A stretch of 64,000 bases of DNA, taken from Octopus vulgaris (lineage: Eukaryota). The position numbers were made by a program, and so were the translations under genes. This document shows positions 2,426 through 49,077 of the stretch, piece by piece (position 1 is the first letter of the stretch; the number at the start of each line of letters is the position of its first letter). The DNA lies in the NCBI GenBank assembly GCA_951406725.2, contig OX597820.1, positions 103,664,001 to 103,728,000 on the forward strand. The letters are read 5' to 3'. The notes beneath the pieces were generated by a model. That model saw nothing but the letters and a program-made list of their open reading frames with translations. It did not search any database and was not told the DNA's origin.

Positions 2426-2660
2426 TACGGAGATGTACTTGCATAGCAAATGACTTGATCTGAGATCGTGTGCTGAAAGTAAAACAATTGCAGCGTGGAA
2501 GATATTTGTAAGCCATTCAAGAAAACCACAAATACAGTTAGTTTCACTTCAACATTAAAACTTCATTTGTGTCAAAATATTTTCCTCGCTTTGAAACCGC
2601 GACCTCTTCACTGACAAAACTTCACGAAAGTAATGCAGCACGAAGTTTTGTCAGTGAACA
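2426..2660 (-). mobile_element. Short non-autonomous PLE-type element, family B, copy 1
   Basis: Homologous to 45348-45620 and 48828-49077 (tacggagatgtacttgcatagcaa...). Terminal inverted repeat 2607-2623/2642-2658. Confidence 0.7.
2570..2616 (-). ncRNA. Degenerate minimal type I hammerhead ribozyme (family B)
   Basis: Minus strand TGTCA GTGAAGA G GTCGC..GCGAG GAAA ATAT T T TGACA. Two substitutions relative to the other two copies. Confidence 0.45.
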
Positions 2661-3013
2661 GCACACGTGCGCGCATGCACGCACGCACACATTCATTGCC
2701 TTTTATTTATGTGTATGTGTATCTATGTGTGCGCGCAAGTGTGTGTGTGTGTCACTATTGAAGTTGTGTTTGGAAACTGTGAATAAGGTGAAAGTTTCGA
2801 GTACTTGTCGGTAACATTTTGTTATTTCACTCCTCGTCTTTTAATAGCAATTACCCAACTTTCTAGGCTCTTCTCACAGCTATCCCACATTCAAAAATTG
2901 TACAAGTATTTAAAAAAATTTCATTCCATAAATAATGTTTTTACATTACATATACATAAAAAGTGAATTAAGACTTAAAAGAGAAAGTGAGAGACTTAGC
3001 AAATGAAAATGGT

Positions 3014-10870: not shown

Positions 10871-11041
10871 TTAAAATAAAATGGGACACAAGGAAGTCAT
10901 TCACTTCACTTGCAATGTATAAAGTAAATTTACAACTTGTATCTTTATTCATCTTTTACCATTTCATTATTAAAAGCTTTTACTATCCATTTTTAGAGTA
11001 TAATTTATAAATTACCATGTTAAATTAGTTTAGTCGTCATA

Positions 11042-11226
11042 CCTATTTCTTTACTACCCACAAGGGGCTAAACACAGAAGGGACAAACAAGGACAGACAA
11101 AGAGATTAAGTCGATTACATCGACCCTAGTGGATAACTGGTACTTAATTTATCGACCCTGAAAGGATGAAAGGCAAAGTCGACCTCGGCGGAATTTGAAC
11201 TCGGAACGTAACGGAAGACGAAATAC
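11042..11226 (-). mobile_element. Headless unit of tailed SINE family A
   Basis: Minus strand runs from gtatttcgtc to gtagtaaagaaata, followed by ggtat; about one repeat unit long. Confidence 0.8.
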
Positions 11227-12800: not shown

Positions 12801-12902
12801 CTGTCTTAACAACAACCACAAAATTAATATTAATAACAGTGGCCACGCAATCAACTGGACACAACAGCGAAATCTGTTTTTAACCAATTACGTAGTCTTA
12901 GA

Positions 12903-13485
12903 AGGTGGTAAGCTGGCAGAAGCGTTAGCACGCCGGGCGAAATGCGTAGCCGTATTTCGTCTGCCGTTACGTTCTGAGTTCAAATTCCGCCGAGGTCGAC
13001 TTTGCCTTTCATCCTTACGGGGTCGATAAATTAAGTACCAGTTATGCACTGGGATCGATGTAATCGACTTAATCCGTTTGTCTGTCCTTGTTTATCCCCT
13101 CTGTGTGTAGCCCCTTGTGGGCAGTAAAGAAATAGGTATTTCGCCTGCCGCTACGTTCTGAGTTCAAATTCCGCCGAGGTCGACTTTGTCTTTCATCCTT
13201 TCGGAGTCGATTAAATAAGTACCAGTTACGCACTGGGGTAGATATAATCAACTTAATCCGTTTGTCTGTCCTTGTTTGTCCTCCCTGTGTTTAGCCCCTT
13301 GTGGGTTGTAAAGAAATAAGTATTTCGTCTGTCTTTACATTCTGAGTTCAAATTCCGCCGAGGTCGACTTTGCCTTTCAACTTTTCGGGGTCATTAAATT
13401 AAGTACCAGTTGCATCCTGGGGTCGATTTAATCGACTGGACCCATCCCCCAAAATTTCGGGCCTTGTGCCTACAGTAGAAAAGAA
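12903..13485 (+). mobile_element. SINE A tandem array (head, two tailed units, parental 3' end)
   Basis: Junctions aagaaata(g/a)gtatttcg at about 13130 and 13315. The last unit ends cccccaaaatttcgggccttgtgcc. Confidence 0.85.
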
Positions 13486-19741: not shown

Positions 19742-19972
19742 CTGCGGCGAGCTGGCAGAAGCGTTAGCACGCCGGGCGAATGCGTAGCCGTATTTCGTCT
19801 GTCGTTACGTTGTGAGTTCAAATTCCGCCGAGGTCGACTTTGCCTTTCATCCTTTCGGGGTCGATAAATTAAGTACCAGTTACGTACTGGGGTCGATATA
19901 ATCGACTTAATACCTATGTCTGTCCTTGTTTGTTCCCTCTATGTTTAGTCCCTTGTGGATAATAAAGAAATA
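19742..19972 (+). mobile_element. Full-length tailed SINE A monomer
   Basis: Head, core and tail ending aataaagaaata. TSD-like ta(g/a)gtgattgtt at 19730-19741 and 19971-19982. Confidence 0.85.
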
Positions 19973-20221
19973 AGTGATTGTTATTATTCCACAACAAAAA
20001 AGCTTACCTAGATCTGCACCTTAAATAAGAATTTTCGTGGTGCAGATCTACAATCTCCCGAAAAATACGGAGACCTCGGAATAAAACAAGAGCAAACGGG
20101 GAATTGAAAAGTATGTCGCCGTAGTGTTACGGTATTATCAATGTGTATTTTCGTATGTGTTGACATTTGATCCTATAATACAATTAATTTGGAACAGTAT
20201 TCTACCATGAAATTTTTTATC

Positions 20222-26624: not shown

Positions 26625-27029
26625 ATGATTGTCATATCTTTACAAAATCCATCGATCAGATTCTGCTACATCTAAAGTGTTTACAAACTTCATATAACAC
26701 GTATATGCTATGGAAGAATTGTGTTTATACTTTCTTTTACTGATATAATGAATTTCCTGAATTTCGTCCTTCGTGAGTGAAGATCGCTTACAGCATTGAA
26801 TACTTATTGAACCACTTAGGGAATGGTATATCGTTTCCATTTTTTCATACGAACATTTAATGCCACTGATACAGAAGATAGCAATGCTACTAATAATGCT
26901 ACTGATATAAATATAAACTTATGCTTACTCCTGATGTTCTATTTACATATTTAATGTAATCGGAAGCTGAGAAATACTTCCATGTACGTAAAAACAACTA
27001 AATAGTTAACAAAATTCATATTGTATAAT

Positions 27030-27639
27030 TTTTATTTCTTTATTGCCCACAGGGGGCTAAACATAGAGGGAACAAACAACGACAGAGAAACGGATTAAGT
27101 CGATTATATCGACCCCAGTGTGTAACTGGTACTTATTTAATCGACCCCAAAAGGATGAAAGGCAGAGTCGACCTCGGCGGAATTTGAATTCAGAACGTAA
27201 CGGCAGACGAAATACCTATTTCTTTACTACCCACAAGAGGCTAAACACAGAGAGGACAAACAAGGACAGACAAATGGATTAAGTCGATTACATCGACCCT
27301 AGTGCGTAACTGGTACTTAATTTATCGACCCCGAAAGGATGAAAGGCAAAGTCGACCTCGGCGGAATTTGAACTCACAACGTAACGGCAGACGAAATACC
27401 TATTTCTTTACTACCCACAAGGGGCTAAACACAGGGAGGACAAACAAGTACAGACAAAGGGATTAAGTCGATTATATCGACCCCAGTGCGTAACTGGTAC
27501 TTATTTAATCGACCACGAAAGGATGAAAGGCAAAGGCAAAGTCGACCTCGGCGGAATTTGAACTCAGAACGTAGCGGCCGACGAAATACCGGTAAGCATT
27601 TCGCCCAGCGTCCTGACGATTCTGCCAGCTCGCCGCCCT
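27030..27639 (-). mobile_element. Trimeric tailed SINE A inserted as one unit
   Basis: One head plus three ~180-bp tailed units. 18-bp TSD aaat(t/c)catattgtataat at 27012-27029 and 27640-27657. Confidence 0.85.
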
Positions 27640-37382: not shown

Positions 37383-38322
37383 CCTCCGTAATGGAATTAT
37401 ATCTATTAACATACCTACCCACATACTACTTCATAATTACATGGGTATATTCATACAGTAATGGTGATACTCGTTGGCGAATATCACCATCACCAATAAA
37501 TCTTATCCTTGATGTTAATGACAATGGCTATCTGCAATGATTGTGCTGAAATTTACAGCCAAATAACAGCTTGCACAACACTGCTTGGGCTTTCACCAGC
37601 AAAGCCAAGTAGTTCAGAAACAAGCAGGCGTGAGATCTGCTTCGCAATGAGACGGAAGTTATTCCGGAATCTCCTTCTAGAGAAACATCTAAACAAAGAC
37701 CAAGAGTCTGTCATTCCCAACTGTGTTTTATGTCCTGCGAAGATTTAACAGGGTCTCCGGTTTAGGCGCCAACAGCTCGTCCATGCGACAGGTTGTACTA
37801 GGTTACATATAACCAGTAGCATTAAGAATGATCTGACATACATATATATGTACAATCGTGCATACACATACATACGCATACAAACCATACAAACGCCTGT
37901 TTTACATATTTGTGTGTAAGTAAACCTAACAAACACACACGCACGCATAATTAAGTAAATATTTTATATGCGTCAGTGAAGACACATATATATATATGTA
38001 TGTATGTATATATTATGTATGTATGTATGTATGTATGTATGTATGTATGTATGTATGTATGTATGTATGTGGACTGAATGGACTATGCGCATACGCACAT
38101 AAGGAGCACACACGAGGACAGAAAGTGTCACCGGAGAGGTCACGAAAGATTTCCGGACAATGGACATAAGTTAAAATAAGAACTGTAATAAATGAATGAA
38201 GAACGAATATATAGTGTGTTTGTTTATTTGGCAAACAAAAAAATGACCGTCTCGAAATACAACAATATCTGTTTCAAAACGCGGTTTCACATCGGGAATC
38301 TTGCAACACAAATTCATAAACG

Positions 38323-38413
<91 letters not shown>

Positions 38414-38414
<1 letters not shown>

Positions 38415-40410
38415 AGGACTGCTTCACTGGCCTGGGCCGCCGACCATCCCCGTGGACGCCTGCCCCTGGCCAGATCCTAGCAGTGGATCTTTTCGCGGGC
38501 GCTTGTCAGCGTGCATTGGAGCGGTTCAACTTCTCCAGGCGCCAACGCCGCCTCAACATCTCCCCGGCTGAGCTCTTGGCTCTTCGTTCCCTCCAACGGC
38601 GCGCTGACATTATCATCAAACCGGCTGACAAGGGTGGAGCTGTAGTGGTGTGGCGCGCGGACCTCTATAGGGCCGAGGCTTTCCACCAACTCAATGACAC
38701 CTCCTTCTAGTCCCCTCTGCCCTCTAACCCCACACGTAGCTACCAACAGACGGTATCCTCTACTGTCCGCGACCTCATCTCGTCCTCCCGTCTCCCCCAC
38801 ACCGCATCCAACCTAATTGTGCGAACCCCACGTACCCCCACCATTTACTTCCTCCCCAAAATCCACAAACCCAACAACCCTGGCCGCCCCATCGTCTCCG
38901 CCTGTAACTGCCCCACGGAGCTCATCTCTAAATACCTCGACCATGTCCTTGCCCCCCTAGTGGCATCTCTTCCCTCCCACATCCACGATACCAACCATGC
39001 TCTCCGGCTTTTCAACTCTTTCTCCTTTCCTCCCGGCTCCTCCAAAATCCTTTTTACTATGGACATCCAAAGCCTCTATACTGTTATCCCTCACCACGAA
39101 GGACTGCAGGCCCTTCGACACTTTCTTGACCTCCGCTCTAACCCTGTACCTGACACCTCCACACTCATTCGTCTGGCCGAACTTGTCCTTACTCTGAACT
39201 GCTTCTCGTTCGCGGGCGAGTTCTACCATCAGGTCTCGGGAGTGGCCATGGGAACGTGAATGGGCCCCAACTATGAGAACCTGTTCGTTGGCTATGTTGA
39301 GGCCCAAATATTCTCTAATTTCACTGGTCCCACTCCTGAACTATATGGTCGTTACATTGACGACATTATCGGTGCCACCTCACTCTCCCGCGAACATCTA
39401 GATTCCTTCCTCTCTTTCGTCCAATCTTTCCATCCAGCCCTCCACTTCACTTCCACTATCTCCAACACCTCTGTCTCCTTCCTCGACATTTCGGTTAGCA
39501 TTCTTCACTCCACTCTTACCACCTCCATTCACTACAAACACACAGACTCACACTCATACCTCAACTTCTCTTCCTCCCACCCAGAACACACCAAGCTTTC
39601 CATCCCCTATTCCCAATTCCTCCGTCTACGTAGGCTCTGTAGTGACGACCATGACTTTGAGACTCAGTCTCAACGTATGGCTCACCACTTCACCCTACGT
39701 GGATACCCCCTCACCACTATCCACACCGCCCTTGCCAGAGCACGGTCCGTGGACCGTGTATCTGCTCTCTCTCCCCGAACCCGCCCTGTAGTCTCCCGCC
39801 TCCCTTTTCCCCTCACTTACCACCCCACGACCCTACGTCTCCAACGCACCATTCTTCGAGCTTTCCGTCATCTCCAGTCCGACCCGTCCACTTCACACCT
39901 CTTCCCTAACCGACCCCTCCCCTCTTTCAAACGAGCCCACAACCTTCGAGATCTTTTGGTCCATAGCTCCTTCCCTGACCCTACCTCCCAACCCGGCTCG
40001 TTCCCCTGCTCCCGCCCACGTTGCCGCACTTGCCCTTACCTCTCCAACACCACCCGCCTCACTAGCACCCACCATCGACCCTATCCCATCATCCACTCCT
40101 TCACCTGCACCTCCAGCAATATTATCTATTGCATCTCTTGCTCTCTCTGCAATTCCTTGTACATCGGACAAACGGGACGCCGCTTGGCTGACCGGTTCGC
40201 GGAACACCTTCGTGACATCCACCTTGCGAACGACACACCGGTCTCACGCCATTTCCGCTCCACCGGTCACTCCTTGCAACACCTATCTGTGTTCGGTTTG
40301 TCCTTACACAGAGGCCATCCGGATTCCCGTTTGCGCCGTGAACAGGAATTAATCTTCTCTCTTCGCTCTTATACGCCATTTGGTCTCAACTCTCCCCCCT
40401 CCTCATCTAA
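38414..40410 (+). pseudogene. PLE reverse transcriptase / GIY-YIG endonuclease with two in-frame stops
   Basis: Single frame: SPWTPAPGQ, IIKPADKGGAVVVW, LPKIHK..PGRPIVS, MDIQSLYT, GVAMGT*MGP, RYIDD, CSRPRCRTC, IYCISCSLC..YIGQTGR..RFAEH, PFGLN. Stops TAG 38708-38710 and TGA 39257-39259. Confidence 0.9.
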
Positions 40411-40958: not shown

Positions 40959-40996
40959 TCTTTCTGTTGAAGAGCGTAGGTTCGAAACGTTAAAGA
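40959..40996 (+). ncRNA. Minimal type I hammerhead ribozyme of the PLE pLTR (A6U core variant)
   Basis: TCTTT CTGTTGA A GAGC gtag GTTC GAAA CG T T AAAGA. Stem I 5 bp, stem II 4 bp (one G-U), palindromic stem III AACGTT. Confidence 0.65.
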
Positions 40997-41104
40997 CTTG
41001 TTTTATTTATATTTCCTGAGCGCCATACTAATACAATTGTTCGTTTGTTTTCCACCTGCCTTCGTCTTTTGTTTATTTTCATAAAGCTTCCCGTTATATA
41101 TATA

Positions 41105-45347: not shown

Positions 45348-45620
45348 TATGGAGATGTACTTGCATAGCAAGTGATTTGATCTGAGATCGTGTGCTGGAA
45401 CGAAAACAATTGCAGCGTGGAAGGTGTTTGTAAGCCATTTAAGAAACACACAAAAGTCGTTCGATTCACTTCAACATTTAAGTTTAATTTTTCAAAATAT
45501 TTTCGTCGCTCTAAGACCGCGACCTGTTCACTGACAAAAATCCGTGATGCATCACAGATTTTTGTCAGTGAACGGGACTTTTGTGTGTTTCTTAAATGGC
45601 ATACAAACACCTTCCACACT
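45348..45620 (-). mobile_element. Short PLE-type element, family B, copy 2, with nested inverted repeats
   Basis: Palindrome 45526-45573; 45576-45620 is the reverse complement of 45414-45458. Confidence 0.75.
45490..45536 (-). ncRNA. Minimal type I hammerhead with G3-C8 core swap
   Basis: TGTCA GTGAACA G GTCGC ggtcttaga GCGAC GAAA ATAT T T TGAAA. Perfect 5-bp stem II; one mismatch in stem I. Confidence 0.6.
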
Positions 45621-48827: not shown

Positions 48828-49073
48828 TACGGAGATGTACTTGCATAGCAAGTGATTTGATCTGAGATCGTGTGCTGAAACGAAGACAATTGCAGCGTGG
48901 AAGGTGTTTGTAAGCCGTTTAAGAAACACACAAAAGCCGTTCGATACTTCAACATTTAAGTTTAATTTGTCAAAATATTTTCGTCGTTTTAAGACCGCGA
49001 CCTGTTCACTGACAAAAATCCGTGCTGCATCTTGTGTGTTTCTTAAATGGCTTACAAACACCTTCCACGCTGC

Positions 49074-49077
<4 letters not shown>
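48828..49077 (-). mobile_element. Short PLE-type element, family B, copy 3, flanked by (TA)n on both sides
   Basis: 49032-49077 is the reverse complement of about 48888-48933. Confidence 0.8.
48966..49016 (-). ncRNA. Minimal type I hammerhead with G3-C8 core swap
   Basis: TTTGTCA GTGAACA G GTCG cggtcttaaaa CGAC GAAA ATAT T T TGACAAA. Stem I 7 bp, stem II 4 bp, palindromic stem III. Confidence 0.65.

Follow-up and report, generated by a model that had tools for sequence, protein, structure and literature searches.

A hammerhead-like motif with a G3-C8 core pair at the 5' end of a Neptune-type Penelope-like retrotransposon in Octopus vulgaris

The closest described relatives of the motif analyzed in this study are the minimal hammerhead ribozymes found in metazoan Penelope-like elements (PLEs); they belong to type I, lie in the pLTR, carry an extra nucleotide between position 9 and the G10.1-C11.1 pair, have a palindromic stem III, and occur in thousands of solo copies (Cervera and De la Pena 2014, PMC4209133; this and the other sources are cited from excerpts). 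In the excerpt, the 56 representatives carry C3-G8, except for two S. mansoni families with U3-A8 and one Saccoglossus row with U3-G8, and G3-C8 occurs in none of them. Natural U3-A8 hammerheads are a known case of compensatory change in the 3-8 pair (Perreault et al. 2011, PMC3088659); they retain a pyrimidine at position 3 and a purine at position 8, whereas G3-C8 reverses this order and needs two transversions. As a laboratory variant G3-C8 has been described (PMC3884650), in the standard hammerhead the double mutant shows partial activity (review PMC8495972), and the C3G/G8C double mutant partly restores cleavage of the hammerhead from a green anole PLE, Poseidon (Frangieh et al. 2024, PMC11167929). 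In the latter system, hammerhead cleavage needs the element protein, which also cuts and extends both DNA strands; reverse transcription begins at two internal sites at the start of the open reading frame (ORF), and the template for insertion is uncut RNA. In the literature searched, as far as these excerpts go, we found no report of a natural G3-C8 hammerhead, the largest survey of variants (Lunse et al. 2017) lying outside the coverage of that search. Natural covariation at positions 3 and 8 and laboratory rescue by G3-C8 are known already, and G-C as the natural state may be new.

The motif occupies positions 48966..49016 of the minus strand in a 64-kb stretch of the octopus genome (hereafter, the window), where it is the sole intact copy of a minimal type I hammerhead fold with a G3-C8 core, as judged from the sequence and the minimum-energy fold. 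It consists of the 5' strand of stem I (49016-49010), the core GUGAACA (49009-49003, with G3 at 49009, C8 at 49004, and A9 at 49003), an extra G (49002), stem II (49001-48998 with 48986-48983), GAAA (48982-48979), the palindromic stem III AAUAUU (48979-48974), U17 (48973), and the 3' strand of stem I (48972-48966). The conventional hammerhead numbering places the predicted cut between 48973 and 48972. All of U4, G5, A6, A9, G12, A13, A14, A15.1-U16.1, and H17 are present, as are the extra nucleotide that separates position 9 from 10.1, the G10.1-C11.1 pair, and the palindromic stem III; the extra nucleotide is G, whereas the excerpted consensus of PMC4209133 has H and a single G row. Positions 3 and 8 are G and C, a combination that would form a Watson-Crick pair, so that the motif fails the literal consensus CUGANGA with its C3 and G8 and nonetheless keeps the pair. 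Stems I and II are present in the minimum-energy fold, stem II having four pairs in this copy and five in most others; the stability of the fold shows no excess over shuffled sequences (z -1.23, with 24 of 200 shuffles equally good).

The long arm of this insertion (48828..49032, minus strand) extends from the inferred cap site at 49032 to the far 3' end (+206) and corresponds to the pLTR and tail of a PLE. Its segment 48828..48918 carries the first ~30 codons of the PLE ORF, with ACG at the start codon where the family has ATG; the encoded N-terminus is 38% identical over 85 aa (E 2.5e-16) to the ORF of a sister family. An inverted short arm (49032..49077, plus strand) contains element positions ~101-146, reaching to the near 3' end, and has (TA)n flanks. 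The second copy has a long arm (45348..45554, minus strand) with a G3-C8 core at 45531-45525 and one broken pair in stem I, and an inverted arm (45546..45620, plus strand) with element positions 1-31 followed by 98-140. The third copy (2426..2619, minus strand) is older, being 84-86% identical to the young ones; its core at 2611-2605 is G3-G8, its G10.1-C11.1 pair is broken, and in its inverted arm (2633..2661, plus strand), GUGAACA is found at 2654-2660, after which the arm ends. The initial annotation had reported a type I hammerhead on the minus strand of all three copies and GUGAACA in two of them and in the inverted arm of the third. This reading of the core and of the parts of the fold agrees with ours; the fold itself is intact only in the 48828 copy, one of the three, a pair of stem I or the G10.1-C11.1 pair being broken in the other two. 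Elsewhere in the window, a dispersed repeat with a B-box-like word (227-552, 11032-11226, 12902-13445, 19779-19975, and 27027-27590), composed of two to three tandem 184-bp units, is presumably a tRNA-related SINE, and the region 58650-61000 is a long array of short-period repeats with a strong G skew.

The hammerhead motif had been attributed to a separate family of dispersed mini-elements. However, the ~205-bp unit is the 5' end of an autonomous Neptune-type PLE, comprising the cap site, the hammerhead, and the first ~30 codons (pLTR and tail), with which it is colinear. In loci L104 and L134 the unit continues into the PLE ORF, and the ATG at +114 of the unit is the start of this ORF, which identifies the unit as the pLTR and tail of the element. 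The translation contains YVDD and DKS, which we take to be motifs of the PLE-type reverse transcriptase; the ORF had no match to a reverse transcriptase domain in Pfam and no match in the PDB. The single ORF encodes a C-terminal GIY-YIG endonuclease (Pfam PF01541, above the cut-off) preceded by a C-x3-C-x2-C linker. Both the endonuclease and an upstream CX2-5CxxC linker, which this sequence fits, are common to the endonuclease-containing Neptune and Nematis PLEs (PMC8557442, in excerpt); placement in Neptune is by these described features, and the linker also occurs in Nematis. Of 5,952 candidates in a protein search of the genome, the 150 that were scored are 86-100% identical, and their open frames reach 1,025 aa. 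Upstream sequence is common to some of the copies; in locus L024 it leads to a GIY-YIG endonuclease ~0.8 kb before the unit. The G3-C8 motif was found 1.1-1.5 kb downstream of the GIY-YIG domain of this family in 27 of 30 fetched loci, and all 47 motif arms from the 35 loci with that domain are G3-C8. The hammerhead therefore sits in the pLTR, as in the described minimal hammerheads. Inverted 5'-truncated copies, an optional 3' tail, and AT-rich or (TA)n targets were all found for this PLE, with 63 of 83 long ends passing into AT-rich DNA; partial tandem and inverted insertions, the tail, and microsatellite targets are likewise described for Neptune and Nematis (PMC8557442). Another segment of the window (38801-39079, plus strand) has a weak match to a PLE protein (28%, E 7e-4) and is possibly an old reverse transcriptase fragment.

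The copies also record how they were inserted. Among 241 arms, 113 start at +1, the 3' ends cluster at ~+146 and ~+206, and 44 of 47 back-to-back pairs combine one long and one short arm. An extra G precedes the boundary AG in 16 of the 27 solo copies that keep this AG (binomial p 2e-7 against the flank composition), and in all 32 read-through copies, where element sequence continues upstream, this place is C or T; we infer that the extra G at +1 is a reverse-transcribed cap. The 5' boundary was also considered as a 3' splice site, there being a branch-point-like motif and a pyrimidine tract, but the retention of AG and the addition of G in the solo copies are as expected for a capped start and disfavor this interpretation. 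Six of the 47 pairs (L006, L008, L154, L171, L176, and L251) show at least two differences between their arms at sites diagnostic of subfamilies; overall, differences between arms were found at 46 of 352 diagnostic sites, which had been chosen for variability, versus 248 of 4,867 other sites. The differing arm haplotypes suggest that two RNA templates may be used in one insertion, although the haplotypes may also stem from a second insertion or from gene conversion at a later time.

These observations are consistent with a pathway in which transcription would start ~57 nt before the cut site, the PLE protein would bind its own RNA at the 5' end, and reverse transcription would start inside the beginning of the ORF, at +146 and +206, so that uncleaved capped RNA would give rise to thousands of ~205-bp stubs and inverted arms. 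Exactly such stubs are expected if the mechanism described for the Poseidon PLE (PMC11167929) operates on a transcript starting in the pLTR. The logic of the two systems is the same, with an ORF start near the motif, two internal starts of reverse transcription defining the tail, and an uncut template; the tail is ~60 nt here versus the 30-40 nt described there. In the least secure step of the pathway, occasional cleavage would remove the capped leader or trim read-through RNA, and it could tune translation or RNA supply while being dispensable for insertion.

Across the genome (227 contigs, 2.8 Gb), 7,252 matches to the pattern TGTCANTGAANAGGTCGC were counted, versus one for the reversed control, and the motif is therefore present beyond chance. 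After subtraction of variant cores, at most 6,634 of these matches (91%) have G3-C8, which is thus the state of the family. The variants comprise 256 matches with G8 and any base at position 3 (among the 100 listed, by hand count, 83 G-G, 10 T-G, 5 C-G, and 2 A-G), 194 with C8 and a base other than G at position 3 (among the 100 listed, approximately 62 A, 28 T, and 10 C), and 168 with G3 and A or T at position 8. The complete intact fold with G3-C8 is present in 98 of the 140 arms that span the whole motif and were unselected for core variants. The motif is also spanned by assembled contigs from four runs with four organism labels, in which positions 3 and 8 do not vary among the matches listed; such contigs carry no information on RNA ends.

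Homologous elements in the same genome have other core pairs. A sister PLE family with 1,312-aa frames, 54% identical over 814 aa to the G3-C8 PLE, has at the corresponding place a C3-G8 hammerhead that shares the extra G and the stem II ends and carries C at position 9; it was identified by reading, as the structural scan demanded a perfect palindrome and A9. A C3-G8 pattern that keeps this extra G and these stem II ends has 5,460 matches (81 in the control), which adjoin homologous ORF starts on the upstream side. Among the 100 matches listed, the C9 core CUGAUGC is the commonest, and CUGAUGA and CUGAAGA also occur; CUGAAGA differs from GUGAACA at positions 3 and 8 only. C9 is characteristic of the young sister family (L131 on the minus strand, L132, L133, and L181-L209), which has intact 1,310-aa frames, and A9 of more diverged copies of the lineage. 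In an old PLE family (L230, L233, and L277-L304), the cores are mostly U3-G8, that is, a wobble pair. The window itself contains a decayed pLTR stub of a C3-G8 sister family at 38120-38323 (plus strand), in which loop II is deleted and the ORF start follows. A further segment (40959-40997, plus strand) resembles a canonical minimal hammerhead of a different family in decayed form, with a short stem II and the palindrome ACGU; similar motifs are present in loci L145 and L147.

Comparison of G3-C8 with the homologous C3-G8 and U3-G8 families upholds the earlier proposal that the swap is compensatory. In 16 hand-picked representatives, whose kinship inflates their shuffle test, the 3-8 pair is CG in nine, GC in three, UG in two, and unpaired in two; 87.5% of the cells are paired, versus 24-50% in slid controls, and six of the 12 pairs, including 3-8, change on both sides. 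Stem III of these hammerheads is stable only as a dimer. A pairing count over 100 rows (75 paired versus 49 in shuffles) was set aside, as the rows are related and six of the 30 loci read resembled chance matches. Another 97 matches have C or U at position 7, with 72 G3-C8, 10 A-C, 5 G-T, 4 C-C, and 1 G-G by hand count; of 30 such loci read, eight fall within the present family as a U7 subfamily; the other 22 form an older branch, in which stem III is AAUU versus AAUAUU in the present family and loop II is shorter. Nine of these 22 loci are long enough for comparison, and their identity to L104 is 63-76%. A tree was built from 37 chosen rows and a short alignment of 196 columns after masking of positions 3 and 8; it places all 18 rows of the G3-C8 lineage on one side of a branch (SH-aLRT 100), with the U3-G8 family joined to this lineage (97) and the C3-G8 families outside; the root is assumed from C3-G8 as the general state. 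The tree indicates that the G3-C8 swap arose once, long ago, and was then kept while position 7, loop II, and the length of the palindrome changed. Such a single old event followed by retention points to selection on the 3-8 pair, and the swap has very probably been kept by selection. At the same time, a single origin means that the counts of covariation are not independent: the covariation is found between families, as one event rather than many.

The G3-G8 cores deserve separate consideration. About 212 copies (~3%) have this core, approximately ten times the background C-to-G rate of 0.28%. They occur genome-wide (for instance, at 2605-2611 of the window and in loci L003, L217, L234, and L235), are often discordant between two arms, and constitute 10 of the 100 matches listed for an older subfamily. 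An ancestral half-way state was considered and rejected: on the tree the G8 copies lie scattered, needing 22 changes for 26 rows (among old copies, 64 shuffles out of 300 are as low), and only one of the 97 C7/U7 matches, which include the older branch, is G3-G8. Given the tenfold excess over the neutral rate, either unpaired cores are propagated or they arise at a hot spot; the excess may be caused by polymorphism of the source, template switch with RNA of the CUGAAGA family, or a hot spot.

The location in the pLTR, the extra nucleotide, the G10.1-C11.1 pair, and the palindromic stem III support the earlier assignment of the motif to the PLE-type minimal type I class, and it is almost certainly a homologue of the PLE hammerheads. 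In Rfam, no hammerhead was found among the window matches listed (150 of 270) or in the 85 rows for L104, L131, L196, and L289, where the canonical-core relative in L196 was missed too. Since Rfam also gave no hammerhead match in loci with the C3-G8 and U3-G8 relatives, this is probably explained by the minimal architecture and not by the swap. The suggestion that CUGANGA-based searches would overlook the motif is thus right for a literal descriptor and does not extend to the Rfam result. A PDB search returned nothing relevant.

We favor, with a little more than even confidence, a leader hammerhead of a Neptune-type PLE that likely still folds with its G3-C8 pair and likely cleaves, though slowly and just in dimeric form or with the aid of the element protein; measurable cleavage by the G3-C8 motif would be somewhat more probable than not. 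The core pair is the same as in the rescued Poseidon hammerhead (PMC11167929), but there it is engineered and here it is wild-type. A hand-built dimer of the swapped motif has -15.8 kcal/mol versus -15.2 for two monomers, that is, 0.6 better. The arm starts were considered as fossil evidence of cleavage and rejected as such, since genome-wide controls give at most a small, 1.3-fold excess. In the hand-classified genome-wide set there are ~43 junctions at the predicted cut (+58) versus ~29 at +57 and ~27 at +59 (estimated from 41, 27, and 13 of 100 listed and totals of 104, 109, and 210, respectively), where a uniform model expects ~34 (p ~0.04). Exact starts at +58 number only two among the 241 arms, and an unbiased sample of 40 arms contains no start at the predicted cut. 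The alternative that the motif is a catalytically dead descendant, whose fold and 3-8 pair are kept for recognition by the element protein or the translation machinery, is rather unlikely, though it would account for the derivation of insertions from uncleaved RNA, the occurrence of cut-site junctions in less than 1% of copies, the drift of cores in this clade (U3-G8, G3-C8, and C9), and the indifference of in vitro insertion to hammerhead mutants reported for Poseidon (PMC11167929). It fits poorly with the retention across families of U4, G5, A6, G12-A14, A15.1-U16.1, a non-G at position 17, and the palindromic stem III, which are what catalysis needs, and with the survival of the palindrome through a 2-nt change in length. 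The conservation of the other catalytic positions and the palindrome in the G3-C8 lineage counts for catalysis; insertion from uncleaved RNA, the ~3% of G3-G8 copies, and the C9 sister family count against strong catalytic selection.

G3 and C8 persist between the old branch and the youngest subfamily in spite of 24-37% divergence, in which position 7 is variously C, U, or A and the leader, the UTR, and loop II have changed; this makes it improbable that drift fixed both changes in a founder with a dispensable hammerhead, the G-C pairing being coincidental and the copy number reflecting the success of the founder. Drift would nevertheless agree with the single origin of the swap, with the G3-G8 copies at ten times the neutral rate, and with the fact that, after the first change, one in three second changes restores a Watson-Crick pair by chance. 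Least credible, and disfavored, is an independent non-autonomous element (SINE or retrozyme) processed by the ribozyme to unit-length or circular RNA. The 11,242 matches to a 19-nt start-codon pattern, versus ~10 close matches deeper in the N-terminal part of the ORF, could be read in this way; however, the unit is colinear with the 5' end of the PLE and runs into its ORF, it begins at the cap site and not at the cut site, and the 60 loci examined contain no head-to-tail arrays, the second arms being inverted. Returning to the leader hammerhead of the PLE, a bolder version of it, which we regard as unlikely, is that of an active, unpublished natural G3-C8 hammerhead in a clade that has tried C-G, U-G, and G-C, with insertion carried out by a protein dimer holding two RNAs, each DNA strand primed at a different site, and the two hammerheads meeting there in trans via the palindromic stem III. 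If true, it would explain why minimal hammerheads need a partner and a protein.

The C3-G8, U3-G8, G3-C8, and C9 variants on one scaffold form a natural series of mutants, which makes it possible to ask whether, in PLE hammerheads, selection acts on the rate of cleavage or on the fold. The copies themselves record the mechanism of insertion, that is, the cap site, the two priming sites, and possibly, in some cases, two different RNAs, in a form testable in the existing in vitro PLE system. If G3-C8 is active, CUGANGA descriptors miss thousands of PLE hammerheads per genome, and a hammerhead may be present in some of the PLEs scored as hammerhead-less.
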